Sequence record: OR062946.1
DNA: 64,000 nucleotides
Strand: one strand, 5' to 3'
Source: Escherichia phage 310Ecol104PP
Under the pieces are notes generated by a model. The model was not told the DNA's origin and made no database searches. It saw only the letters and a list, made by a program, of their open reading frames with translations. Shown in pieces: positions 2,513-43,780 of the stretch. How positions within the stretch are numbered: the first letter of the stretch is position 1; the number at the start of each line of letters is the position of its first letter. The translations under genes and the position numbers were made by a program.

Positions 2513-3094
2513 AACATTTACTTTAGACTGTTTTTCAGATGGCAATTCATATCCACATATTACAATTTTATGATCAATATCAAAATACACAGAAGCAATA
2601 TGATTAATGATATTTTCAGTGAAGTCTAAATCAACATCAATATCTTTTTGACCACAGCCCAAAGGATAAATAATGCGAGTAATTCGATTATCTTTAACAA
2701 ATATTCCACCGACATACTCTGTGCTGCGTTTAAAGTCTACACGCCGACGAAATGAAAAATATTCAGGCTCTTTATGAGCTCGGCTCATAGGGCACAACGA
2801 ATAACTAGAATAAGAGATGTCAAATCCTACGCCTTCAATATGAGCCAAAGTGTCATGATTAAACCAATTATAATCGTACGCCAAATCCATTAGATTATAA
2901 TATGTAAAAGGCACCGGATTAACATCATTAGTCGCAAGCATGTAATTAGCAATTGCTATAATTTCATTGTTTTTAACGAATACAAACCGTGATTGATGCG
3001 AATGACCTGGACCCGCGTTTTCACGATTAATGATATAACACTGGGCACCTTTATATTTGTATGTATCTTTGCACTTGTGCATTTGATAGAGCAT
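2468..3094 (-). CDS. hypothetical protein, 208 aa (position and size of T4 61.2)
   Basis: ORF track; between 61.1 and sp; ends ...SIDDQIFNAFMNRD. Confidence 0.6.
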   Translation of the reverse strand: MLYQMHKCKDTYKYKGAQCYIINRENAGPGHSHQSRFVFVKNNEIIAIANYMLATNDVNPVPFTYYNLMDLAYDYNWFNHDTLAHIEGVGFDISYSSYSLCPMSRAHKEPEYFSFRRRVDFKRSTEYVGGIFVKDNRITRIIYPLGCGQKDIDVDLDFTENIINHIASVYFDIDHKIVICGYELPSEKQSKVNVSIDDQIFNAFMNRD

Positions 3095-3387
3095 TATTCA
3101 CCTACCACTTCAGCGATGATATTTTTGTTATTAAAGTTTTTATCGCAATACAGAACATAATTATACTGCATTACACCGCCAGACTTAAGTTGTTTTTGTA
3201 CTTCAGCTTTCATTTCAGGACGATCGCGCTCAACGATATTCATAATATCTGCTTCAATTTGAGTTTCAACCTCAGTCTGATCTGCAGTCATAGACCATTC
3301 ACACAAATCTTTATCATAACCTGCCATAGCAGGCTGAGCAGCACAAGAAGCTAAAGCAAAAATTGTAGCAAAGATAAATTTTTTCAT
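3094..3387 (-). CDS. sp: spackle periplasmic superinfection-exclusion protein
   Basis: 97 aa; signal peptide MKKFIFATIFALASCAAQPAMA; matches recalled T4 Sp; precedes dmd. Confidence 0.85.
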   Translation of the reverse strand: MKKFIFATIFALASCAAQPAMAGYDKDLCEWSMTADQTEVETQIEADIMNIVERDRPEMKAEVQKQLKSGGVMQYNYVLYCDKNFNNKNIIAEVVGE

Positions 3388-3447
3388 GATAATCTCCTCA
3401 GTAGTTTATGTTTATATAGTATCTCAATTTCCAACAAAAGTAAACAG

Positions 3448-8966: not shown

Positions 8967-9347
8967 TCACTTAGTCAAATTTTTTACGCATGAATTATAA
9001 GAATTCACTACATACTCCATCGGAGCATTTTTACCAGTACGCCATTGGTAATTATTAGCCCAATTAGCCCAAATTTCGGCGCAGTAGTTTTCAATTTTTT
9101 CTTCGCGTGTAATTACATCCGAATTACGATATGCTTGAGCAGATTCATCTGGACGAATAGCTTCGTCAAAATTCTCCTGCATTTGTTCTACTGTCTGTTT
9201 TGGAGCTTCTTTATAACACTTGACATTAGGATTATAAAATTTGCTTGAACAGTTTACAATTTTTCCTACATCAGACTGATTTACTACCGGTCCTTGAGCT
9301 ACACAACCAGTAAGACCTAATGCAATAACCAAAATAGCGATTTTCAT
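8967..9347 (-). CDS. predicted lipoprotein, 126 aa
   Basis: N-term MKIAILVIALGLTGC with lipobox LTGC; Cys-containing mature part. Confidence 0.6.
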   Translation of the reverse strand: MKIAILVIALGLTGCVAQGPVVNQSDVGKIVNCSSKFYNPNVKCYKEAPKQTVEQMQENFDEAIRPDESAQAYRNSDVITREEKIENYCAEIWANWANNYQWRTGKNAPMEYVVNSYNSCVKNLTK

Positions 9348-9786: not shown

Positions 9787-12483
9787 TCAGCCAAACAGGA
9801 AGTCTAACGAAGCTTTTTCTTCATAGTCCATACCAGCCGATTCACACATACCAGCAAGCGGTTTAACAAACGATTTTTGGAACAAAGTTGAGTAGTCAAT
9901 CCAAGATAGTACATCAGAACGAATTTCTTTTGGAAGTTCTGTACCCGACGGCCAAGCAATGCACTTATCACCAAATGGATTTCCTTCACGTAATGGAAGA
10001 ACCATTACTTTATTTCCATCCAAAATTGGAGCTACACCCAGACCACTAACAGCTCGACGATAAGTTAGCACACCACGAATATGGAATGGGCATTTAAATC
10101 CTGGCCAACCTTTATCATCATATTTCGCTATATCGTTCGCAGTTTTTACTTCAGCAATAACTTTATAGTCAAGTTGACGATATTCTTTCTCGAAGTTTTT
10201 GTAATATTCTTGGACAGACTCTTCACCTTCCTGAAGAATACGACGAATACTTTCTTCGAGAGCTTCTTGCACTGCTTTTGGTGTTGAACTCTGCTGAGTT
10301 TCCATACCCATGATTTTTAGATGCGGTTCAGCAAATCGTTTATCTTCCATATCATAAACGTTCAGAGCATAACGCTTTTTCGCTTTCCAAAATCCGCCAA
10401 CGCCCTTTGAACCAAGTGGAGGGCAAGAAATAGCTTCACGGTCCATATGCATCAGATGCTCGCGGTTATTCATATAATCACATAACTCACGATATGCAAC
10501 ATCAATCATAGGTTCCATCTTTTTCTTACCGAACTGATTCATGAATTCAACTAAATCGTTCTGCTCTTTGAATCGGTCAAGACCAACTTTTTCAATAACT
10601 TTATCTACACAAACATATACCGAATCAGTATCACCTGCCGCGATGAAATCTTCACCATTAGTTCCACACACTTTATTCAGATATTCATTAATTTTACGAG
10701 CAATCCACTGAATACCGACTTGGCCAAAAATTGTGATAGCAGTAGCATTTCGCAAATCATAGTAACGGAAATGAATATTACCAAGAGCACCATAAAGACT
10801 GTTAATAAGAATTTTACGGTTCAGCTGATTTGTATTAGCAAGTGTAGCTGCTTTTTCACATTCCTCAATCAGACTATTGAGAACAGATTCAGTATAATTC
10901 GATAGCTCATTTAAGAAATCATCACTGAACTTAACATATCGTTCAACTTCTGGTTTAGTTGAACAAGACCCTGCGCCTTTCATAATAATCTTTTTAATAG
11001 CTTCGGCATTCATTTCTTCAGCGAACATTTTCTTTTTCCAGTCTTTACGCTGGAAAAATACTTTAGCGATTTCCTTTGGAATGATACCTTCTTGATGCTT
11101 ATCATACATCCATCCATTCGGAGAACAAGAATATTCATCACTCGGTTTAGGAGCTGTTCCTGCAATATATTCATGAATTGGATGAACTTTAAACTGCCCA
11201 CGAATAGTCTCAGGACTAATGTTAACCTGACGAATAATGCTCGGATACAGAGACGTCAAGTCAAAACTCATAATATATCGACGAGCAATTGGTTTAGGTT
11301 CAAATACAAATGCACCCGGAAAACTTTGTTTAACGTGCGAACCTTGTTGAGGAATAACCTTGTGTTCACCTTTCAATGAGTTAAAAATGATAGCATCCCA
11401 AGTTTTAATAGGACTCATTACACCAGAAAAAGGCATTTTAGCATAATAAGACATACTTAAAACTAGATCAATAAACCCGCGAATTTTATCAATTGCTTGA
11501 ACTGATTCTACGTCAATGATGTTATAACTAATGTATCGTTGATGATTAGTCTCACGAAGTTTATTAATAGGACCGTCGTATGGTAATTTACCTTTTTTGG
11601 TTTCATGTTGAGCAACTGATTCCAAAGAGAATGACGGCAAATTAGTAAAAGCAAATTTCTTGTACAAATCTAAATAATCAAGAATAGATACGCCATCAAT
11701 AGAATAAATTTCTTTGCTACCGTACATATTTTGAATTAGTTTAGATTTTACCCGACCGATTGGAGAGAAACGTTTCATACTGCGTTCGCCCAGAATCATT
11801 TTAACACGATTCATGATATATGGAACGTCAAATCCCTCAATATTCCAACCAGTAAAAATAGCAGGTCGTTTCTGTTCCCAGAGATTAATATATTCCATGA
11901 GCATATCACGCTCATTATCGAATGGCATATAAATTACTCGGTCAAGAATTTCTTGAGGAACTTCATCACCACCTTCACAGTCAAGCTTAGCAGCTAACTT
12001 TGCATCCCATTTTGATACTGAACCGTACATTGAATTCAAAAGATCGAAAACATAAAAACGATCATCAATTGAATCGTAATGAGTGATAGCATCAATTTCA
12101 TATTCTGCTTTCATTGGGTCAGGAAATTTATCACCGGTAACCTCAATGTCACAGTTAGCTACACGAACAAATTTTCGGTCATAAACAATTTCTGAACCAT
12201 ATGTATCACTGATATAAGCGAGTTTAAAGTCGTTCATACCGAGAGCTTCGAGACCGATGTCTTCCATTCGCTTCATCCAATCTCGAGCATCTTTCATTGA
12301 TGGAAATTTTTGAGGAGCACAATTTTTACCATAGATGTCTTTGTATTTTGACTCTTCCTTACAATGTCTAAACATAGTTGGAAGATATTCTACTTCACGG
12401 GTACGTTCCTTTCCGTTTTCATCAATATAACGTTCAACAATGTTATTTCCGACTGTTTCGATAGAGATATAAAATTCTTTCAT
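9787..12483 (-). CDS. 43: DNA polymerase gp43
   Basis: 898 aa; family B polymerase; matches recalled T4 gp43 N-terminus and length. Confidence 0.97.
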   Translation of the reverse strand: MKEFYISIETVGNNIVERYIDENGKERTREVEYLPTMFRHCKEESKYKDIYGKNCAPQKFPSMKDARDWMKRMEDIGLEALGMNDFKLAYISDTYGSEIVYDRKFVRVANCDIEVTGDKFPDPMKAEYEIDAITHYDSIDDRFYVFDLLNSMYGSVSKWDAKLAAKLDCEGGDEVPQEILDRVIYMPFDNERDMLMEYINLWEQKRPAIFTGWNIEGFDVPYIMNRVKMILGERSMKRFSPIGRVKSKLIQNMYGSKEIYSIDGVSILDYLDLYKKFAFTNLPSFSLESVAQHETKKGKLPYDGPINKLRETNHQRYISYNIIDVESVQAIDKIRGFIDLVLSMSYYAKMPFSGVMSPIKTWDAIIFNSLKGEHKVIPQQGSHVKQSFPGAFVFEPKPIARRYIMSFDLTSLYPSIIRQVNISPETIRGQFKVHPIHEYIAGTAPKPSDEYSCSPNGWMYDKHQEGIIPKEIAKVFFQRKDWKKKMFAEEMNAEAIKKIIMKGAGSCSTKPEVERYVKFSDDFLNELSNYTESVLNSLIEECEKAATLANTNQLNRKILINSLYGALGNIHFRYYDLRNATAITIFGQVGIQWIARKINEYLNKVCGTNGEDFIAAGDTDSVYVCVDKVIEKVGLDRFKEQNDLVEFMNQFGKKKMEPMIDVAYRELCDYMNNREHLMHMDREAISCPPLGSKGVGGFWKAKKRYALNVYDMEDKRFAEPHLKIMGMETQQSSTPKAVQEALEESIRRILQEGEESVQEYYKNFEKEYRQLDYKVIAEVKTANDIAKYDDKGWPGFKCPFHIRGVLTYRRAVSGLGVAPILDGNKVMVLPLREGNPFGDKCIAWPSGTELPKEIRSDVLSWIDYSTLFQKSFVKPLAGMCESAGMDYEEKASLDFLFG

Positions 12484-15891: not shown

Positions 15892-16608
15892 ATGAATTAT
15901 AAACTAATTTATGAAAAGCTAATCTCTAATGCTAAATCTCGAAAACTTAATTGCTATACTGAATCTCATCACATTATACCACGCTGTTTAAATGGTAGCG
16001 ATGATGCTTCAAACTTAGTAGATTTAACACCAGAAGAGCACTATGTAGCTCATCAACTTTTAGTAAAAATTTATCCTTCTGAACCAAAATTAGTCTATGC
16101 TGCTAACATGATGACAGTTTCCACAAAATACGCTAAACGCAACAATAAAACTTTCGGTTGGATTCGTCGTAAACTCTGGGAAATAGAAAAGAATAAAGAA
16201 TTCTCCCAGGAGACACGAAAGAAAATGTCTGATGCAGTAGCTAATAAAGCAAGACTAACTTGTCCTCATTGCGGTAAGTCTGGATTAAGCGGGAATATGA
16301 ATCGTTGGCATTTTGATAACTGCCCAAATCACCCTAATCCTAAAGTTAGACCACCAATGTCTAAAGAACACAGAAATAATATCTCAAACGGGCTTAAAGC
16401 AATCGTTCTTGAAGAAACATCCTGCGAATTCTGCGGAATGATAGGCAAGAAATGCGTTATCGCAGCGCATAGAAATTTCTGCAAGAAAAATCCAAATGGA
16501 CGCAAGAAAACTGAAAAGACTGGTACTTGCGTCCATTGTGGTAAAGTTACCACTTTCGGAAATTTATCAAGGTGGCATAATGATAACTGTAAATATAAAC
16601 CTAGCTAA
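15892..16608 (+). CDS. freestanding HNH homing endonuclease with three C-terminal zinc-finger-like repeats
   Basis: 238 aa; HNH motif ESHHIIPRCLNGSDDASNLVDLTPEEHYVAHQ; repeats CPHCG..WHFDNC, CEFCG..HRNFC, CVHCG..WHNDNC; opposite strand to neighbours; 8-nt convergent overlap with gene 46. Confidence 0.8.
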   Translation: MNYKLIYEKLISNAKSRKLNCYTESHHIIPRCLNGSDDASNLVDLTPEEHYVAHQLLVKIYPSEPKLVYAANMMTVSTKYAKRNNKTFGWIRRKLWEIEKNKEFSQETRKKMSDAVANKARLTCPHCGKSGLSGNMNRWHFDNCPNHPNPKVRPPMSKEHRNNISNGLKAIVLEETSCEFCGMIGKKCVIAAHRNFCKKNPNGRKKTEKTGTCVHCGKVTTFGNLSRWHNDNCKYKPS

Positions 16609-34937: not shown

Positions 34938-35240
34938 CTAAAAGAAACTTCTTTCACAATTTTTTCCACTGAACCACGCACTCACTGCTTTCTTAGTCTC
35001 AGGAGCAGTGTTATCCATAAACCATTCAAAGGCAGCCTTTTTATGATTCTGGAGGGCTTCTCGGGCTTTAATCTGCTCACGGTCTATTAACACTAACATA
35101 TGAGCCTTTCTTGTCACCAGGGGCTTCTTATGATTTTTTGAATACTCCCAATCATTTGTCCATCGCATCGTTGTTGCGAATTGAAGTACAGCTTCCTTAA
35201 TCTTAGTTTCGTAAATTTCACGAGCCTTTGAGTATAACAT
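34938..35240 (-). CDS. hypothetical protein, about 100 aa
   Basis: likely start ATG 35240 (MLYSKAREIY) after GGAGG. Confidence 0.5.
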   Translation of the reverse strand: MLYSKAREIYETKIKEAVLQFATTMRWTNDWEYSKNHKKPLVTRKAHMLVLIDREQIKAREALQNHKKAAFEWFMDNTAPETKKAVSAWFSGKNCERSFF

Positions 35241-35341
35241 CACTACCTCCATTTACCAGTTTAATTCTAGTCATCTTTTTGATGGCAGTCCATATAATCT
35301 ATTTCTGAACTGCCTTTTTGTCATAGAAGTCCTCTTATGAA

Positions 35342-36310
35342 TTATTTCAGAAGAGTAACCTCAGCGATTTCTTCCCAACCGTTTTTGTCGGTCATAATAA
35401 AGTCAGCAAGATAAAGAGCAGTACGCAGTGAAACATTGCGTAAACGATTAACATTGAATTTCATCCATGATAATGCTTTATAAGTTTCTTCATCAGAAAG
35501 ACCGCGTTTTTGCATCATGTCAGTTGAAAGAATAACATCTTCAACCCTGACCATAATTTCTTCATTAGTGTGAACACCCAAATCCAAATAAACTGAGCGG
35601 GACACTAGCGCTTGTAAATGTGGAGCAAGTTTAGTACCACGGTCTAATTCGCGGTCAATGTCAACGTTTGTGATAAAAACAATCGTTCCTTTAAATTCAA
35701 ACTCACGGTCAATGCCTTTTTCTTCTAAGTAAGAAGATGCAGTGCTCCAGCAGACTTTACGGGTCTCTCCAGTGTCCAGAGCAGCTTTCAGAAGATTAAG
35801 AATGTCCATATCAGAGAAAACATCCACATCATCAATCAAAAGGACAGAATTCTCTTCACGATTATTCCAAAGCTGCTCATAAAGACCGATACCAGAGATT
35901 TTACCATTAATGCTTTTATACTCAATGTATCCAATATCATTTGCTTTATTCAAAGCTTTATCTAAAGAATACGTTTTACCAATACCTGCCGCACCAGAGA
36001 TAATTAATGAACGAATATTTCCGTTAATAATACCATTCGTCATCATTCCCATAACATTAAATCTTTTATTAATGCGGGTTTTCATATCTTCATATGATTC
36101 TTTAACTTCTTCAACTTTTACACCATCATATGAAATGTCTGATTTGTAAACCCAAACACCACGACGTTTACCATCAATTTCAACAAAAACTTTACCATCT
36201 CCTTGTGCATCTACCGGAGCATTATCTGGGAACCATTCGCCTAAGAGCTCAAAAGTTCCAGAGATTTCTTTACCGAAGTAGATACCCTTATTGATAGTTA
36301 CAGTTTTCAT
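35342..36310 (-). CDS. AAA-family ATPase
   Basis: 322 aa; Walker A GAAGIGKTY, Walker B VLLIDDVD. Confidence 0.7.
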   Translation of the reverse strand: MKTVTINKGIYFGKEISGTFELLGEWFPDNAPVDAQGDGKVFVEIDGKRRGVWVYKSDISYDGVKVEEVKESYEDMKTRINKRFNVMGMMTNGIINGNIRSLIISGAAGIGKTYSLDKALNKANDIGYIEYKSINGKISGIGLYEQLWNNREENSVLLIDDVDVFSDMDILNLLKAALDTGETRKVCWSTASSYLEEKGIDREFEFKGTIVFITNVDIDRELDRGTKLAPHLQALVSRSVYLDLGVHTNEEIMVRVEDVILSTDMMQKRGLSDEETYKALSWMKFNVNRLRNVSLRTALYLADFIMTDKNGWEEIAEVTLLK

Positions 36311-36337
36311 TTTATTCTCCTTTGATTTGATAGGACT

Positions 36338-36367
36338 ACTATAACATAGTCCTATCAGTTTGTATAC
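36338..36367 (-). promoter_or_regulatory. early-promoter-like element
   Basis: GTATAC (weaker -35), 18 nt, TATAGT; -10 in loop of inverted repeat GATAGGACT/AGTCCTATC. Confidence 0.4.
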
Positions 36368-36568
36368 TTATTTTGACATTTCTTCGATGTCACGACGATA
36401 CCCGTCACGAACTTCACGAAGAGCTTCAAGGCCACACATAGGCTCGATACCAGTAATGTGAACTTGATTAATCTGATACTCTACATCTTCTAACTGAGCG
36501 AAAACATAACGACGTTCAGCTGCACAACCAGATTTAGCTTTACCGAAACGTTTATTCAAAGTAGTCAT
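36368..36568 (-). CDS. hypothetical protein, 66 aa
   Basis: ORF track. Confidence 0.45.
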   Translation of the reverse strand: MTTLNKRFGKAKSGCAAERRYVFAQLEDVEYQINQVHITGIEPMCGLEALREVRDGYRRDIEEMSK

Positions 36569-36606
36569 TTTGTATCTCCAATTTACTCATTTGTTTTGAT
36601 AGGTCT

Positions 36607-36636
36607 ATAGTATCAACAACTACAGACCATGTAAAC
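36607..36636 (-). promoter_or_regulatory. T4-type early promoter
   Basis: GTTTAC, 18 nt, TACTAT. Confidence 0.55.
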
Positions 36637-36660
36637 CGTTTTGTGAAAAATTTTTGAAAT

Positions 36661-36684
36661 AAAAAAGGGAGCCCGAAGGCTCCC
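36661..36684 (-). terminator. intrinsic terminator
   Basis: GGGAGCC-CGAA-GGCTCCC hairpin followed by U6 on minus strand. Confidence 0.65.
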
Positions 36685-36686
36685 TA

Positions 36687-37700
36687 TCATTTATAATAAC
36701 TTCGGTGGTTTTCAAGATAGACCTTCTCAAGGAAGTCATCCCAGAAACTCATGTCTACTGTTTTAGGCATACCGTTCTTAGAAGCTTCAGTAGATGCTGC
36801 TTCTACTTGATCGACCACATCTTCCAAAAACTCTTGAACTGTTTTAAATGGATGTTTACCCAACTTCACGTCGAGAATAAATGGAGCATCTTGAAGTGGA
36901 TAGACTAAGTCACCAGTTTTGTAAATTTCCAATAGTTGGAGTCCACCACGACAAGCATGACTTAGTGCTTTCCAATCAATGCCTTCATTGGCTTCGGCCT
37001 TACGAGCACGTTCACCGTATTCAGCATCTAATTTGTTCAGTGACTGCTTAAGCTCAATAAGAGAAAGCGTTGTCTGATATTTACGACCCAACACAGTGTA
37101 GAACGTTTGTGGGCCTGTTTTCTCATGATTATGGAACACCCATTCACAGAATTCGTTTTCTGGAAGACGATGCTTAATATCTTCAACTTTAGTACGACGC
37201 TGCTTAATGGAACCGTCTTCTTGGTAATCAACCCATTGCTCAGGGATTTGATTAACTACTTTCAATACATCACGTAATGCAGCCAAACGAGAACCCTTGA
37301 CGCCGTATTTAGAAGCTTGCTTGCGGACATATCCTAAATATGATTTCATGTTAGTCGTATAAAAACGAGAACGGTTGTCTTGAATAAACTTCCACACATC
37401 AGGCAAATCGGATTTAACCACTAGTTCAGGTGGAGTGTGAAGCATATCCAACGCTACAGTTTCACCATCTGCTGCTAATTTAAAGAAATATTTAAGACTG
37501 TATAGTTCATGGTCAATATCATCTTTAGTGTTTTTAGATGATGTATTGTTAGTATTTTTACTCATATGCTCTTTAACATTTCCGATAAGAATATCACGAG
37601 CAGGAGGAACAAAGATTTCTTTAAAATCTACATCAGATTCTGGGGTAGAAGTTCCATAAAGATGACTACCAAAATAGCTTTTCATTACTGTTTTCATCAT
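36687..37700 (-). CDS. predicted nucleotidyltransferase (Pol-beta superfamily fold)
   Basis: 337 aa; GSHLYGTSTPESDVDF matches GS-x9-DxD NTase motif. Confidence 0.6.
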   Translation of the reverse strand: MMKTVMKSYFGSHLYGTSTPESDVDFKEIFVPPARDILIGNVKEHMSKNTNNTSSKNTKDDIDHELYSLKYFFKLAADGETVALDMLHTPPELVVKSDLPDVWKFIQDNRSRFYTTNMKSYLGYVRKQASKYGVKGSRLAALRDVLKVVNQIPEQWVDYQEDGSIKQRRTKVEDIKHRLPENEFCEWVFHNHEKTGPQTFYTVLGRKYQTTLSLIELKQSLNKLDAEYGERARKAEANEGIDWKALSHACRGGLQLLEIYKTGDLVYPLQDAPFILDVKLGKHPFKTVQEFLEDVVDQVEAASTEASKNGMPKTVDMSFWDDFLEKVYLENHRSYYK

Positions 37701-38158
37701 TCAGCCTTATATTCAATAACAGGACATACTTTAGCTTTACGAGCTTTTAAAAATTCAACGATAACCGATTTCTTGGGTTGAATAGGAGGTAAACCTTTAT
37801 ACGCCCTATCAATATTTTCTACGTGTAAAGCATAATCCTTTTTCCATTTATAATCTTTATATTTTTCACGCAAATGTGCAGGAATAACAAATGAACCGAT
37901 AATAAGTAAAACAACCAAAAGCGCAAGTATAAATGCTGATGGAAGCAAAGTCCATAAACTACCAAAAATAATCCAACGTTGTAGGCTTTCTGCACAAATA
38001 ATTGTTAGCCCTACGAGTATAGCACATCCAAAAATAGAAACGAAAAATGTAGGAATGGCAATAGACCAAAAATATGCGCACAGTGTCTTAGGTCGTTGCC
38101 ATTCATCGTTAAACAATTTGAATAATTTATAGTGCCAAGAGTTTTCATTAATAATCAT
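37697..38158 (-). CDS. membrane protein, 153 aa
   Basis: three to four hydrophobic helices. Confidence 0.5.
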   Translation of the reverse strand: MIINENSWHYKLFKLFNDEWQRPKTLCAYFWSIAIPTFFVSIFGCAILVGLTIICAESLQRWIIFGSLWTLLPSAFILALLVVLLIIGSFVIPAHLREKYKDYKWKKDYALHVENIDRAYKGLPPIQPKKSVIVEFLKARKAKVCPVIEYKAE

Positions 38159-38160
38159 AA

Positions 38161-38682
38161 TTATCCTTTCATTGAAGGCGTAACGGTTGTTAAATACTTA
38201 ATCATAGCTTCAGCTTCTGATTTTGATAGTGAAATTTCTTCACCGTTTTGGCGAATAGAAACAAAATCTGGATGACGATCACCACCAGCTTTTAAAACAC
38301 ACATATAAGTATCAGCTTCGCCTTCAATATTTGAAATGATTGAAGCAGTTCCACATGAATGCGGTTTTTGATAAATCAATACAGCTTTTCTTCCACCATT
38401 TGACTGTTCATAGGCTTTTAATACATCAAGCAAATCAGTTCTTTTATCAATAGCTAAGATGTTATTTTCATCTTCAATATTAAATCCTTCGGATACTTCA
38501 TAAAGAGTTACCCATAAATCACCGATGTCAATAACAGCATTTACTTTTCCACGGCTTTCAAGAGTATGACAAATTTTCTTGATTTCGTCATAACTCATTT
38601 TAATAATATCATCTCCTTGACTAAGGAAGATGTCATTTTTAAATTCAACACGAATTAAACCGCTTCCACTTGAAATAAACAT
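38161..38682 (-). CDS. hypothetical protein, 173 aa (paralog of next gene)
   Basis: shares GFNIE(D/S)E and C-terminal E-A-x-x-x-K-Y-L-x-x-V-x-P-(S/T)-M motifs with 38689..39243 product. Confidence 0.5.
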   Translation of the reverse strand: MFISSGSGLIRVEFKNDIFLSQGDDIIKMSYDEIKKICHTLESRGKVNAVIDIGDLWVTLYEVSEGFNIEDENNILAIDKRTDLLDVLKAYEQSNGGRKAVLIYQKPHSCGTASIISNIEGEADTYMCVLKAGGDRHPDFVSIRQNGEEISLSKSEAEAMIKYLTTVTPSMKG

Positions 38683-38688
38683 ATTTCC

Positions 38689-39243
38689 TCACTTTGAAAT
38701 CATAGTTGGAATAACAGAATCAAGATAAGTCTTTAGTGCAATAGCTTCGTCTTTGGTAAATGTGACAATATGTGCTCGAGAATCATCAATTTGACGAATA
38801 GTTAAGACATCTCCATCTTCATAACATTTTGATACGTTTAAAACAGTTTCATCATTCTGATTGCAAGCGTTAGTAATAATAGCATTGCAATTTTTAAACC
38901 ATTTTAAACTATGTTTTCTTTCATTAGAATAATAAAAATATTTAATCTTATCTATAAAACTATCCCAATGGATAACTGATAAGCATATTGACTCGCTTTC
39001 AATATTAAATCCTGGGCATGAAGAATAAAAATGAATTTTATGCTCATCATTAATGCTTACAATTTTATCAGTATAAGGATTTTCAATTTGGGTTAAATGA
39101 ATGATTTCACTAGGCGTAAAATATAACATATCGTCTTCTTGTGTCAAACGATACATATTATTTACTTTTTCTATAGCCAATTCACCAAAAAGTGAACTAA
39201 CTTCTAATACTAATCGTTTCATATTAATCCTTTTTATTGGCAC
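38689..39243 (-). CDS. hypothetical protein, 184 aa (paralog of previous gene)
   Basis: ORF track; see paralog note. Confidence 0.5.
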   Translation of the reverse strand: MPIKRINMKRLVLEVSSLFGELAIEKVNNMYRLTQEDDMLYFTPSEIIHLTQIENPYTDKIVSINDEHKIHFYSSCPGFNIESESICLSVIHWDSFIDKIKYFYYSNERKHSLKWFKNCNAIITNACNQNDETVLNVSKCYEDGDVLTIRQIDDSRAHIVTFTKDEAIALKTYLDSVIPTMISK

Positions 39244-39502
39244 GAATTTGTTCTAAAATTTTAGAGTATTCCTTTGTATCAGATTTACGTACAATCGATA
39301 CACTATACGGCATACTATCGGTGTCTTTTATAAAGCGTTCCAAATGACACTCTAATAAAATTTCTGGATTATAAATCGTGTACATCAAATTACCTGTTGC
39401 TCCACGATATTGACAGATTTCTACTGATTGAACACCATTCCATAATTTTGTTAAGACCAAATCACCTACTTCTAATTTAGGAAAGCCCATGTTATTCACC
39501 AA
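39224..39502 (-). CDS. hypothetical protein, 92 aa
   Basis: ORF track. Confidence 0.45.
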   Translation of the reverse strand: MVNNMGFPKLEVGDLVLTKLWNGVQSVEICQYRGATGNLMYTIYNPEILLECHLERFIKDTDSMPYSVSIVRKSDTKEYSKILEQIRANKKD

Positions 39503-39677
39503 TTAAAGTTTCAATATAAGAATCAAGATTTACTTTAGCTTCTTCCATAAGAGTTTTGTATTTAATCTTGTTAGCATGTCCGGAGAAAGCTGATTCATCA
39601 ATAACTGTTGATGTATGAACAGCTCTACTATACGTCTCAATTAATTCTCTTAATTTAAAAGCCTGCTCACTTGTCAT
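39492..39677 (-). CDS. hypothetical protein, 61 aa
   Basis: ORF track; early promoter upstream. Confidence 0.45.
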   Translation of the reverse strand: MTSEQAFKLRELIETYSRAVHTSTVIDESAFSGHANKIKYKTLMEEAKVNLDSYIETLIGE

Positions 39678-39809
39678 TACATACTCCTTTGAATCATATC
39701 AATAATATTGTTCACCAGATTATAGGTAAACATTGGGTAATTATATTGAATCATCACATATATAACAAACAAAACTTTCATTCTCTTCTCCTTGACAGTT
39801 GACAAGATT

Positions 39810-39839
39810 ACTATACCATAACCTTGCCAACTTGTAAAC
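39810..39839 (-). promoter_or_regulatory. T4-type early promoter
   Basis: GTTTAC, 18 nt, TATAGT. Confidence 0.55.
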
Positions 39840-39841
39840 CG

Positions 39842-40015
39842 TTAAATGTTGTTTTCAATAAAATTCTGAAGCTTTGTGTGAGCATCAACCATGATTTTCA
39901 TTTCTTCCTTTGCGAAAGCTGTACCTCTTTCCCGAGCAGAATACTCATAGTCAGAAACTGCATTAGCATATTCTTCAATTAGCTTCATTAAAAACATCTG
40001 CTTTTCAGTTTTCAT
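39842..40015 (-). CDS. hypothetical small protein, 57 aa
   Basis: own translation MKTEKQMFLMKLIEEYANAVSDYEYSARERGTAFAKEEMKIMVDAHTKLQNFIENNI; start uncertain. Confidence 0.35.
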   Translation of the reverse strand: MKTEKQMFLMKLIEEYANAVSDYEYSARERGTAFAKEEMKIMVDAHTKLQNFIENNI

Positions 40016-40199
40016 TATTCCACCTAATCATTTCAAGATATTGAACTAACTTAGCTTTAGATTTATCCAAATCCTTTTTAGCTGCTTCTATACCGTCGTA
40101 TGAATATCCTTCACAATGCTCAACTGCTAATTGATATGAATCTATTTCAATATCACGTGCTAATTTAATGATTTTTTCAAACTGTTCGCGTGTTAGCAT
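40005..40199 (-). CDS. hypothetical protein, 64 aa
   Basis: ORF track. Confidence 0.45.
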   Translation of the reverse strand: MLTREQFEKIIKLARDIEIDSYQLAVEHCEGYSYDGIEAAKKDLDKSKAKLVQYLEMIRWNNEN

Positions 40200-40201
40200 A
40201 A

Positions 40202-40405
40202 TTAAACTCTCGTATTATGATCGATAATTTCATCAAGAAACATATCTAACGCTTCTAAAGCATTATCAACTTTAGTTTCAAAGTCTTTAATGCCTTTATT
40301 CGAAATACCCGATGAATACCAAGCAAAGTCAATCAGCTCTTCATCTGCTTTACGAATTGAAGCCACTAATTCCTTGATTTTATCTGCTTGCTCTATACTA
40401 ATCAT
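40202..40405 (-). CDS. hypothetical protein, about 67 aa
   Basis: likely start ATG 40405 ([11 protein letters not shown]) after GGTGGA. Confidence 0.45.
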   Translation of the reverse strand: MISIEQADKIKELVASIRKADEELIDFAWYSSGISNKGIKDFETKVDNALEALDMFLDEIIDHNTRV

Positions 40406-40593
40406 TATTCCACCACATATGACAGAGAGAATATTGCACACGCCATATGCGTTGCAGCTTCATCACACATATTATAACGTTTCTTCAAAACTTCAACAAG
40501 TTCTTCACTAGTAACTTCATCCATGTCGACGAAAAAATCACCATTAATGATGACGTAGATATTTCCTTCTTGATTGAGTGCTTCAATTTTCAT
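40405..40593 (-). CDS. hypothetical protein, about 62 aa
   Basis: likely start ATG 40593 ([10 protein letters not shown]) after GAGGAG; track start extends through promoter. Confidence 0.45.
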
Positions 40594-40621
40594 GATGTTC
40601 TCCTCTTTATTCGATAGTTGT

Positions 40622-40651
40622 ATAGTACCACAACTCAAACGGAAAGTAAAC
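40622..40651 (-). promoter_or_regulatory. T4-type early promoter
   Basis: GTTTAC, 18 nt, TACTAT. Confidence 0.55.
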
Positions 40652-40660
40652 CGGTAAAAT

Positions 40661-40683
40661 GAAAAAAGTCTCCCGAAGGAGAC
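40661..40683 (-). terminator. intrinsic terminator
   Basis: GTCTCC-CGAA-GGAGAC hairpin plus U6. Confidence 0.6.
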
Positions 40684-40688
40684 TAATG

Positions 40689-41075
40689 TTATTCGAGGGA
40701 AAGAAGATACTTACTCTGGTAAAACATTCCAGTAATATCATCTATCGTGCTTTGAATGGCTGGAGGCATTTCTTTATAAATGCTGTTAGATTGGTCTAGT
40801 ATGCGATCAATCATTTTAATTGTGTCGGTAGGAAGTTTACTGGCATCTGGAATTGAAGGTGTGTATTTTCTACCAGAATACCCCAAATATTGCTCACCAA
40901 ATTTATCAATCAAATCTGGCAACTCGGAGAAAATAAAATCGTATGCTTTGTGTCTAGCATAACTTTTAGTTTCAAAATGTGCAGAATGAAAATAAGCTTG
41001 TGCAGCCATTAATAAACCTAAGTATTCATCTGCCTTTGAAGGTTTTCCACTTTGTGAAAAGTCGCTGAATTTCAT
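40689..41075 (-). CDS. hypothetical protein, 128 aa (upstream of rI)
   Basis: ORF track. Confidence 0.5.
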
Positions 41076-41365
41076 TCAGTCTCCAATTTAATGTTCATAA
41101 TTCTAGCGTATGATTGTGCCATCTCCGCGCCTCGTTCTATACATTCAAAATCAGAAGAGCACGGGTCATTTTTATAGGTCGTTCTCATAAAACTATAGAA
41201 TTGTTCAGACGATTCTACGCTTTTATTTTCAAAAAGCATATAAACATGTCTAATACCAGATTCCATAAATTTATCAAAATGAGGATCGACATTCGCTTCA
41301 ATCGATGGAGATAAAACAAATGACAATCCTAGCATGGCAAATAGTGCCGTTGCTTTTAAGGCCAT
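41072..41365 (-). CDS. rI: RI lysis inhibition regulator
   Basis: 97 aa; signal-anchor MALKATALFAMLGLSFVLSPSIEA; matches recalled T4 RI. Confidence 0.85.
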   Translation of the reverse strand: MALKATALFAMLGLSFVLSPSIEANVDPHFDKFMESGIRHVYMLFENKSVESSEQFYSFMRTTYKNDPCSSDFECIERGAEMAQSYARIMNIKLETE

Positions 41366-41377
41366 AAAGGCCTCCTA

Positions 41378-41590
41378 TCATTTTTGTCCTGTATTTACTT
41401 TATGCCGATGCACGGCCTTAACTTTATCAAGGTATTTTTCAAAATTTCGCAATCTAGTATAGTCTGCCGGAGATTGGTTGAGTGATACTTCTCGACGCAA
41501 AGCTGAAATAACATTTCCAACTTCCCTACGAATTTCATCTAATTGAAGCACAGTAAGATTGCGAAGTTGCTTTTCAGTTAATTGTAGCAT
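41378..41590 (-). CDS. hypothetical protein, 70 aa
   Basis: ORF track. Confidence 0.5.
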
Positions 41591-41632
41591 ATATACCCCT
41601 TTAGTTAGATAAACCTATTTATAACTTTTGCA

Positions 41633-42214
41633 CTAACCGAGCTTTTTAGTTAATTCATTCCAATGTTTTCTACACAAAGAAACATAAATTTCATCACCAA
41701 TACAGATTTGATTACCTTCTTTAACTGGTGTTCCATCTTCCATTAATCGAGCTGTCATAATCGCTTTTTTGCCGCAATGACAAACTGCCTTTAGTTCAAT
41801 AAGTTTATCTGCAATCGCTAAAAGTTCTTTAGAACCTTCAAACAATTTTCCAGCGAAATCAGTCCTTAATCCATAAGCCATAACAGGAACATTATATGTA
41901 TCAACAATTCGGCTCAATTGATGTACTTGTTCAGTTTTTAAAAATTGGGCTTCATCTACAAATACGCAATGAATATCTTTTTGTGCTTCAGCCCATTTAT
42001 AGAACTCGAAAATATCCATATCATCTGTAATAATATTCGCTTCCTGTTTAATTCCAATGCGAGAAACGACTTCGCAGACAGAATCGCGAGTATCAATAGC
42101 AGGCTTAAGAACTAATACACTCATTCCACGTTCTTTATAATTATGTGCAGCAGTCAAAAGAGAAGCAGATTTTCCAGCATTCATTGCTGCATAAGTAAAA
42201 ATTAAACTCGCCAT
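41633..42214 (-). CDS. tk: thymidine kinase
   Basis: 193 aa; P-loop AAMNAGKS, C-terminal Zn ribbon CHCGKKA...C. Confidence 0.95.
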   Translation of the reverse strand: MASLIFTYAAMNAGKSASLLTAAHNYKERGMSVLVLKPAIDTRDSVCEVVSRIGIKQEANIITDDMDIFEFYKWAEAQKDIHCVFVDEAQFLKTEQVHQLSRIVDTYNVPVMAYGLRTDFAGKLFEGSKELLAIADKLIELKAVCHCGKKAIMTARLMEDGTPVKEGNQICIGDEIYVSLCRKHWNELTKKLG

Positions 42215-42223
42215 ATCACCTTC

Positions 42224-42409
42224 TTAAAGCGTATTCACATAAGCTATTAATTCATTTTCTTTCTTATCAAACCGATCAGCAAATTCTTCCTGCTGTTCGG
42301 GAGATAGCGGGCCGTATTCATCATAAAAGGTGTTTGCTTCTATATGCTCATCTAGAAGTTCATGGATAAGCTCAAACAATTTATCTTTTTGTTCTTTACT
42401 CAGACTCAT
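42224..42409 (-). CDS. hypothetical protein, 61 aa
   Basis: ORF track. Confidence 0.5.
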   Translation of the reverse strand: MSLSKEQKDKLFELIHELLDEHIEANTFYDEYGPLSPEQQEEFADRFDKKENELIAYVNTL

Positions 42410-42575
42410 ATATTAATTTCCAGGAGTTTTAAAATAATTCGCTTTTGCTTAAATATTTCCATAGTTAAATGACCAGTATCTTTTTGACCGATTCCAATGG
42501 CAAAACCTTTATTAACAGCGAGTTCAATTAAATTATCAAGCTCACGTAACACTTCGTATTGTAACTCAAAACTAT

Positions 42576-42782
42576 TCATTTTGGTTTACCTTCTTTAACG
42601 AAATCAGGATAAGGATAAAATCCTGAATAAAATCCTTCACCTTTATGATTGATGCATCCTTTATTAGAACAATAGCACCAATAATCGAAATCACAAGCCA
42701 TTTCATCATTACATAAAGCAAAAACAACAGGCCATTTACACTTTTCACAATGGGCATGTTTAAGAATACTAGTTTGGCTCAT
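42576..42782 (-). CDS. Cys-rich small protein, about 68 aa
   Basis: likely start ATG 42782 (MSQTSILKHAHCEKCKW), ATGA overlap with upstream stop; about 11 Cys. Confidence 0.45.
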   Translation of the reverse strand: MSQTSILKHAHCEKCKWPVVFALCNDEMACDFDYWCYCSNKGCINHKGEGFYSGFYPYPDFVKEGKPK

Positions 42783-42991
42783 AACCATGTAACCTTTAAG
42801 CAATATTCTTCTACATGTTGTTTACGACCTTTCTTATCAATAAAGGTATATTCAACGAATGTTCCAATGTAGTCTTTATCTACATCATGTGGACTATTAA
42901 TTGGACATTTAGTACGGCAAATGCGTTCCCATTGACGAATAATTTCCACTTTGTTTTTAGGATCAAACGGATGTGGGTAATGTACTTTCAT
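42779..42991 (-). CDS. hypothetical protein, 70 aa
   Basis: ORF track. Confidence 0.5.
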   Translation of the reverse strand: MKVHYPHPFDPKNKVEIIRQWERICRTKCPINSPHDVDKDYIGTFVEYTFIDKKGRKQHVEEYCLKVTWL

Positions 42992-43442
42992 AATCCACCA
43001 CTATTAAATCAATATCAGGAGTAAACATGTCGATTAATTTAGAAACCTTATCCCAATCGCCGCCAGCAATACCACAACCTATGCGTGGAATGTAAATTAC
43101 TGGTTTAAACAAAAGGGTTTCTGCCTGTAGATTTAATTCTATCATGCAGTTTACTAAAGCACCATAATCAAGATTAGGACCTGGTTCGTATTGCGTATAC
43201 AGGTTATAGCATATACCAAAACCATTAGGTTTATGTTTAAAAACAATAGACATATCGCCTAATTTATCACGAGAACCGTACTCAGTAGTGGTTTTATCTA
43301 TTTCTAAAATTTTGGGATAGGCTCTTGCTAATTGACCAGCTACACCTGAACCCATAGTATGAAAACAATTGCACCCGTGCGCAATAATATTACCTTGAAG
43401 AAATAGGGCGACAATATCGCCCTTGATATATTTTACAATCAT
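42963..43442 (-). CDS. macro-domain protein (ADP-ribose binding/processing fold)
   Basis: 159 aa; GCNCFHTMGSGVAGQ and IGCGIAGGDW resemble macrodomain signature. Confidence 0.6.
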   Translation of the reverse strand: MIVKYIKGDIVALFLQGNIIAHGCNCFHTMGSGVAGQLARAYPKILEIDKTTTEYGSRDKLGDMSIVFKHKPNGFGICYNLYTQYEPGPNLDYGALVNCMIELNLQAETLLFKPVIYIPRIGCGIAGGDWDKVSKLIDMFTPDIDLIVVDYESTLPTSV

Positions 43443-43780
43443 CTAGTACTCAATCCTCGATTATAAGAATCTACCAAACGGTCAACCATTGAATGACAAG
43501 CGGCTTTATCTTTCTCCTCCGCAACTGAACATTCTAAGGTATTCCACTTTTTAGCATATCGTTTTAACAATGTATCATTTTTGTATCTGCTTGATTTATC
43601 TCTTTCTCCGTCTTTATATGCATATATTAATTTCTGCGCAAATTCAGCTTGGCATGCTTTATTTTTCCCGCAATAATCCGCTGCAGTACGGTTTACATAC
43701 TCTCTAATTTCAGTATATGATGTATCTGCTAACGCAGAAAATGAAATTAATCCTATACATAAAACCAAAATTTTAGTCAT
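43439..43780 (-). CDS. secreted small protein, 113 aa
   Basis: signal peptide MTKILVLCIGLISFSALA; 4 Cys. Confidence 0.5.
   Translation of the reverse strand: MTKILVLCIGLISFSALADTSYTEIREYVNRTAADYCGKNKACQAEFAQKLIYAYKDGERDKSSRYKNDTLLKRYAKKWNTLECSVAEEKDKAACHSMVDRLVDSYNRGLSTR

Follow-up and report, generated by a model that had tools for sequence, protein, structure and literature searches.

The 64,000-nucleotide stretch of Escherichia phage 310Ecol104PP examined here (sequence record OR062946.1; "the window") belongs to a Tequatrovirus of the RB14/RB32 type, and its genes from nrdC.11 to rI.-1 form a block that lies entirely on the minus strand. We consider it very probable that this block is the endonuclease-free, majority, ancestral-type version of the nrdC.11-rI.-1 early region in Tequatrovirus, and that phage T4 carries a variant overwritten by the endonuclease gene mobD. 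A preliminary description made from the sequence alone had presented the block as a variable substitute for the mobD region, with a gene content that T4 would not share. Alignment bears this out, since mobD is absent from the window, and a membrane-protein gene and a second mobD.1-like gene stand in its place. However, the polarity implied by that description appears to be reversed, the common ancestral-type layout being that of the window and the variant that of T4.

Positions 36600-41400 of the window match 644 phage records, of which the closest is Escherichia phage JLBYU31 (99.9% identity), and RB14, T6, wV7 and many other Tequatrovirus phages cover 99% of this segment at 96-98% identity. 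RB14 and RB32 (FJ839692, NC_008515) have an identical gene order, including RB14ncORF100c and RB14ncORF101c, and 97% nucleotide identity across 36596-42214. In T4 (NC_000866, 55435-59205), nrdC.11, mobD.1, mobD.2, mobD.2a, mobD.3, mobD.4, mobD.5 and rI.-1 are orthologous to the window genes and in the same order, with 91-96% nucleotide identity. Only two differences interrupt this correspondence. The window has 987 bp (37677-38663) holding two genes, here called A and B, where T4 has an 833-bp mobD cassette, and it has a 445-bp segment (39221-39665) with genes D and E that T4 lacks. The substitution for mobD proposed in the preliminary description thus holds for the 987 bp, whereas the remainder of the block consists of T4's own mobD.1-mobD.5 at 91-96% identity plus the 445-bp insert.

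In blastn comparisons with T4, 36596-37701 aligns with nrdC.11 (94.6%), 38664-39220 with mobD.1 (91.2%), and 39666-42214 with mobD.2 through tk (95.7%). Positions 37702-38663 (A and B) lie opposite the mobD segment and 39221-39665 (D and E) opposite 2 bp, which places the junctions at 37701/37702, 38663/38664, 39220/39221 and 39665/39666. A nine-genome alignment of three mobD-carrying phages (T4, RB7 and Pu-Krd-SF1) and six mobD-free ones (the window, RB14, AR1, sb1, HY01 and PhiZZ6) placed the left junction at 37676/37677 instead. The junctions coincide with translation starts, namely the ribosome sites and first codons of B, E and nrdC.11, and a search for repeats found none at or flanking them. 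In agreement with the preliminary description, T4 carries mobD in this interval; the gene encodes a 259-amino acid HNH protein and lies between nrdC.11 and mobD.1. T4 also has a 23-codon stub of B and recoded nrdC.11 codons 4-8, and it has neither A and B nor D and E. The window allele is therefore a mobD-free one at the site where relatives carry mobD, with homologous nrdC.11 and mobD.1 flanks. The reported absence of an HNH gene was also confirmed, in that a Pfam scan and a tblastn search with T4 MobD detected no HNH motif or MobD similarity between nrdC.11 and rI.-1, and nothing in 37697-40593.

T4 appears to represent the derived state, on the basis of the B stub, the gene order in outgroups, the frequencies among records and the decay of mobD. 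Immediately after the mobD.1 stop codon, T4, RB7 and Pu-Krd-SF1 have GAGGAAAT-ATG-TTTATTTCAAGTGGAA, which corresponds to the B ribosome site and codons for MFISSG; the stub in mobD carriers reads GAGGAAAT ATG TTT ATT TCA AGT GGA A. In T4 it continues into unrelated sequence to form a 23-codon open reading frame (ORF; MFISSGTDMCYKCKAKLNETKNQ), whose stop codon overlaps the mobD start (ATGA). This ORF (9210-9283 of the T4 stretch compared) is unannotated in NC_000866. In the outgroup phages Mosigvirus JN02 and Dhakavirus VR5, the gene order is tk, rI, rI.-1, small genes, one gene of the y05I family, a membrane-protein gene and nrdC.11, with no HNH gene. Their membrane proteins share 50% and 33% identity with A, respectively, and the product of their single y05I gene is 45% and 34% identical to that of gene C (the mobD.1 ortholog), and 31% and 27% identical to B. 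Because of this synteny and these identities, the position of A next to nrdC.11 is taken to be old, C to be the original y05I gene, and B to be an extra copy in Tequatrovirus.

The A+B junction occurs in 422 records, versus 47 for the mobD junction (counting records in which at least 80% of the junction query was covered, with duplicate and closely related entries included). In Pu-Krd-SF1, mobD is split into two ORFs annotated as "homing endonuclease" (2627-3406 of the stretch compared); the gene appears broken, which fits a decaying selfish gene. A free-standing HNH homing-endonuclease gene, mobD, would thus have entered an ancestor of T4 and overwritten 987 bp, comprising all of A and all of B save its ribosome site and first six codons, and it would have brought its own version of nrdC.11 codons 4-8. 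We infer that mobD arrived by homing.

The true left junction is a recoded patch within nrdC.11 (37677-37689, minus strand), where seven fixed differences in codons 4-8 separate the three mobD-carrying phages from the six mobD-free ones. These positions (37677-37680, 37683, 37685 and 37689) are the only ones among 1014 aligned nrdC.11 columns to separate the groups, and none was found in mobD.2a-rI.1 or in comparable mobD.1 columns, a comparison limited by the partial alignment of PhiZZ6. The codons read AAA ACA GTA ATG AAA AGC TAT in the window and AAA ACT GTA GTT AAG TCT TAT in T4. Five of the seven changes fall within synonymous codon changes, including a three-base serine-to-serine switch, and the other two produce one methionine-to-valine substitution. 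Four positions lie beyond the mobD stop codon, so they are not accounted for by the coding of mobD itself. A total of 58 phage records contain the T4-type 47-mer, mostly with mobD or an HNH gene annotated at this site, and the full T4 mobD junction is found in 47 records. A scan of IMG/VR with the T4-type junction 29-mer matched only one contig, too few to judge an association.

The patch is a candidate MobD recognition or immunity site. We tentatively propose, as a possibility rather than an expectation, that it is or overlaps the MobD recognition site, that the window allele is a natural homing substrate, and that mobD is expressed through the B ribosome site by way of a translationally coupled 23-codon leader ORF. 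Alternatively, the patch may mark the cassette boundary only. SegH and Hef reportedly replace mobC and mobE, as described by Sandegren et al. in 2005. In the compilation of Edgell, Gibb and Belfort (2010, PMC2988022), mobD appears among the free-standing HNH genes, with nrdC.11/mobD.1 as its insertion site, its activity not determined and its target unknown, and our literature search found no later report on MobD activity or target. The locus resembles sites of intronless homing by free-standing T-even endonucleases, such as SegF at gene 56, SegG at gene 32 and MobE at nrdB (PMC2988022, PMC2993671), in that an endonuclease gene is present or absent among close relatives at one site between conserved genes, and perhaps also in the clustering of differences at the junction in the neighbouring conserved gene. 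Unlike those systems, the mobD allele has not merely gained one gene, but also lacks two genes of the mobD-free allele, and the action of MobD here is putative.

Several points weigh against this account. The polarity is drawn from two outgroup genomes together with record counts in which duplicates and close relatives are included. Classical free-standing endonuclease genes insert without loss of cargo, and two genes were lost here, so the event was not a simple insertion. Three of the seven patch nucleotides lie inside the last codons of mobD, and the coding needs of mobD, rather than target immunity, could explain them. The activity and mobility of MobD are putative, the activity being listed as not determined (PMC2988022). 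Also, structure searching gave no informative match.

If mobD were instead an older resident of Tequatrovirus, A and B could have recombined into the lineage of the window from another T4-like phage, displacing mobD. Neither of the two outgroups examined has an ortholog of B, which is only 27-31% identical to the y05I proteins there and must therefore have been added at some point, and the region is a mosaic with several independent insertions and deletions. However, A adjoins nrdC.11 in both Mosigvirus and Dhakavirus and has homologs in 920 records across Tevenvirinae, the truncated B stub in mobD carriers is easier to understand as a remnant than as a precursor, the split of mobD in Pu-Krd-SF1 fits a transient selfish element, and the mobD state is about nine times rarer. 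We regard this reversed history as highly unlikely. A different proposal is that A and B form a functional module, for example for membrane-anchored exclusion or counter-defence, and that selection on that function, rather than the spread of mobD, drives their presence and absence. The two genes are separated by only 2 nucleotides, are lost together in T4, and are early genes in a region of accessory functions (PMC2993671). Both are also under purifying selection: ratios of nonsynonymous to synonymous substitution rates (dN/dS), computed against orthologs 92-99% identical, are 0.11-0.30 for A and 0.13-0.19 for B, compared with 0.11-0.36 for C and 0.04-0.07 for nrdC.11. Yet A occurs without B in the outgroups, B is split or carries a nonsense mutation in sb1 while A is intact, neither protein matches a PADLOC or NCBIfam family, and we found no function for either in the literature. 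A two-gene module is unlikely, if somewhat less so than the reversed history.

Whether the small ORFs and the paralogous pair are genes at all can be judged from the same data. The DNA is AT-rich (~31-34% G+C), in which spurious ORFs are many, and several of the genes encode fewer than 70 amino acids. However, all but one of the ten ORFs have matches to curated or clustered families, with E-values from 1e-15 to 1e-80, dN/dS is well below 1, and synteny is kept across genera. Chance ORFs are almost certainly not the explanation, and the family matches and dN/dS values refute them. The genes of the block are short and closely spaced, the stop codon of one often overlapping the start codon of the next, and they are under purifying selection yet dispensable. 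A deletion from nrdC.11 to mobD.3 arose in a viable genome-reduced T4 (PMC9825161). The mobD.1 gene of RB14 is frameshifted by a 1-nucleotide deletion and annotated as 127 amino acids, whereas that of the window is intact. Phage RPN226 has a natural deletion by which the 3' end of mobD and mobD.3 have become one 66-amino acid fusion ORF (3031-3231 of the stretch compared), and it lacks mobD.1, mobD.2 and mobD.2a. RPN226 retains the T4-type recoded nrdC.11 start, and therefore descends from a mobD carrier.

The left flank of the block is nrdC.11 (36687-37700), a nucleotidyltransferase gene (RlaP, PF10127, E-value 3e-11) that is 94.6% identical to its T4 counterpart, and whose ATG shares an ATGA overlap with the stop codon of gene A. 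Gene A (RB32ORF096c, 37697-38158) encodes 153 amino acids matching phrog_944, "membrane protein" (E-value 1e-49). The preliminary description had called this product a membrane protein, in agreement with two hydrophobic segments at residues ~28-56 and 64-93, followed by a basic C-terminal tail; this arrangement suggests a membrane hairpin with both ends in the cytoplasm. The ends of the protein are conserved (NSWHYK...PKxLCAYFW at the N terminus and KAKVCPxIE at the C terminus). Its structural model is all helical and too weak for a fold search (predicted local distance difference test score, pLDDT, 62.8; predicted template modelling score 0.27).

Gene B (RB32ORF097c, 38161-38682) encodes 173 amino acids and gene C (38689-39222) encodes 177, or 184 when read from a GTG at 39243. 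Their paralogy, proposed from the sequence, is supported by 27% full-length identity in BLASTP (E-value 1e-11) and by the presence of both T4_y05I_N and T4_y05I_C domains in each protein. B matches PF24449 with an E-value of 3e-33 and PF24448 with 3.5e-23, and C with 7e-38 and 6e-21; in N-to-C order the Pfam scores are 114.8 and 82.2 bits for B, and 129.7 and 75.1 bits for C (gathering cut-offs for PF24449/PF24448 are 24.9 and 27 bits). Single-sequence phmmer searches for paralogs within the window returned this pair only. The 184-amino acid length given previously for C is that of the longest ORF, but the ATG at 39222 is the likelier start, as it is preceded by AAGGA and immediately by the stop codon of the upstream gene, and the resulting 177 amino acids equal the annotated length in AR1, HY01 and RB7. 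C is 84% identical to T4 MobD.1. B and C share an exact 16-nucleotide repeat (38473-38488 and 38998-39013, TTCAATATTAAATCCT) that encodes a conserved GFNIE motif, although the proteins are only 27% identical. A 179-amino acid metagenomic protein combines an N-terminal half of the mobD.1 (C) type with a C-terminal half of the RB32ORF097c (B) type, which suggests unequal recombination between tandem paralogs and collapse into one gene.

The AlphaFold2 model of B (pLDDT 79.7) has two strand-rich domains with a helix at the end of each. Foldseek comparison of this model with the PDB gave nothing significant (best E-value 0.03, template modelling score ~0.18), and the polo-box and sliding-clamp proteins among those matches were dismissed as noise at E-values no better than 0.03. 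Against BFVD, the model retrieved only y05I family members and uncharacterised proteins. This structure search on B, which served as the HHpred-type check suggested in the preliminary description, gave no function. The Pfam name of T4_y05I implies a "putative transcription factor", a label for which we found no supporting structure match in the PDB or BFVD and no paper.

The preliminary description correctly placed the block between 37697, the stop of the 153-amino acid ORF, and 40593, at the mobD.5 ATG, but counted six small genes where there are seven (88, 61, 34, 57, 64, 67 and 62 amino acids), having passed over the 34-amino acid mobD.2. Gene D (RB14ncORF100c, 39224-39490, 88 amino acids), at the start of the 445-bp segment missing in T4, matches Phage_tudor (PF24144, E-value 2e-40) with 136.9 bits over profile positions 1-87 of 90 (cut-off 27 bits). 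Gene E (RB14ncORF101c, 39492-39677, 61 amino acids), which forms the second part of that segment, belongs to DUF7438 (PF24219, E-value 1.7e-15). The next gene, mobD.2 (39677-39781), matches phrog_3515 (E-value 7e-22). It is followed by three further DUF7438 genes: mobD.2a (39842-40015, 57 amino acids, E-value 5.8e-16), mobD.3 (40005-40199, 64 amino acids, E-value 1.5e-17, dN/dS 0-0.22) and mobD.4 (40202-40405, 67 amino acids, E-value 6.5e-16). The full-length DUF7438 matches of E, mobD.2a, mobD.3 and mobD.4 score 57.5, 59.0, 64.1 and 58.9 bits, respectively (cut-off 25 bits). Finally, mobD.5 (40405-40593) encodes an acidic protein of 62 amino acids without a Pfam family that matches phrog_3024 (E-value 1e-43), and rI.-1 (40689-41075) forms the right flank. 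A fifth DUF7438 copy, tk.1 (42224-42409), was detected with 69.5 bits by the Pfam model, which it required, since a profile built from the four block sequences recovered only its own members in the window. In T4, mobD.2a is annotated as 38 amino acids (10050-10166 of the stretch compared), versus 57 amino acids of full-length DUF7438 in the window, RB14 and RB7, and in T4 the gene may be shortened or wrongly annotated.

When the ten proteins were all compared with NCBIfam and PADLOC, only sub-threshold noise was returned, PDB sequence searches with B and D returned nothing, and no RNA family was found by Rfam in 35000-43500. Our literature search found no paper that assigns a function to mobD.1 through mobD.5, A or B. 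From their position and timing, our best guess is that the block proteins have accessory early roles, directed at host components or at competing phages.

Genes D and E are present in 131 of 491 records, and E occurs without D in some phages, for example PhiZZ6. Both D and E accompany mobD in RB7 and RB9, so the D+E and mobD polymorphisms are independent. T4 MobD.1 starts with MMSEA and the E protein of the window with MTSEQA, and the underlying DNA is similar. This resemblance suggests that the T4 state resulted from a deletion between a point near the beginning of E and the mobD.1 start, which fused the start of E to mobD.1.

A terminator-like hairpin follows the nrdC.11 stop codon (36666-36685, minus strand; 8-bp stem with 6 GC pairs and a T-run tail, TTTTTTATTT), and is likely to be the end of the early transcription unit that holds the block. 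A site resembling T4 early promoters lies upstream of mobD.2 (39810-39838, minus strand; TTTACA, 17 nucleotides, TG-TATAGT) and another upstream of mobD.5 (40622-40650, minus strand; TTTACT, 17 nucleotides, TGg-TACTAT). A second terminator-like hairpin, after rI.-1 (40667-40684, minus strand), marks the right boundary of the transcription units of the block. These promoter and terminator sites are consensus matches only. The site upstream of mobD.5 corresponds to the mobD.5 promoter of T4, which is known together with its transcript, the latter having served as a control (PMC1702504). One leftward early unit would run from its promoter through mobD.5, mobD.4, mobD.3 and mobD.2a, and a second from its promoter through mobD.2, E, D, mobD.1, B, A and nrdC.11 to the terminator.

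Hyperplastic regions shuffled by promoter-early stem-loop (PeSL) elements (Arbiol 2010, PMC2839356; Comeau 2014, PMC4122927) likewise have small variable early genes between conserved blocks, with independent insertions and deletions, and a terminator is followed by an early promoter here as well (40684-40622). However, unlike in PeSL cassettes, the junctions here are at translation starts rather than at promoters or stem-loops, and there are no flanking repeats. PeSL-mediated shuffling was rejected as the cause of the insertions and deletions, as the promoter and terminator sites (39810-39838 and 40622-40684) are off the junctions.

Other variable sites occur in the vicinity and elsewhere in the window. 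A segment of 275 bp that is not present in RB14 separates nrdC.10 from nrdC.11 in the window (36321-36595), where T4 and RB14 have only 13 bp; this segment holds a 66-amino acid ORF (36368-36568, minus strand) without a Pfam match. A 431-bp query covering it (36250-36680) was found over at least 80% of its length in 119 of 656 phage records. The segment is another small insertion or deletion of this region. The tk.1-tk.3 interval (42224-42991) is also variable, with 68-85% identity to T4 and RB14, and a Phage_zn_bind ORF (42576-42803) and a DUF7202 ORF (42779-42991) occupy the place of tk.3 in T4. The only real match to T4 MobD in the tblastn search of the window (15949-16101) falls in a 238-amino acid mob-like HNH ORF (15892-16608, plus strand), antisense between genes 45.2 and 46, where T4 has no gene. 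In the region of the HNH motif this ORF shares 59% identity with T4 MobD, and it is present in 59 of 503 phage records. The phage therefore lacks mobD yet carries an endonuclease gene that is absent in T4.

The layout of the block is already known, being annotated in the RB14 record and common to hundreds of T4-like phages. Indeed, the GenBank notes for RB14 carry the words "replaces mobD" for RB32ORF096c and "similar to mobD.1" for RB32ORF097c. It is likewise textbook knowledge of this group that endonuclease genes are distributed unevenly among the close relatives of T4 and that variable ORFs cluster in 40-75 kb of the T4 map (PMC2993671). The finding is ordinary and of little weight by itself. 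What our analysis adds is the polarity, the exact boundaries of the cassette, the B stub, and a candidate MobD target in the recoded patch. The 13-nucleotide patch offers a concrete candidate target for MobD, one of the T4 endonucleases that in 2010 still appeared with unknown activity and target. More generally, the reference genome T4 would be derived at this locus, two conserved genes having probably been displaced there by a selfish endonuclease gene, which calls for caution in using T4 as a template for gene content.

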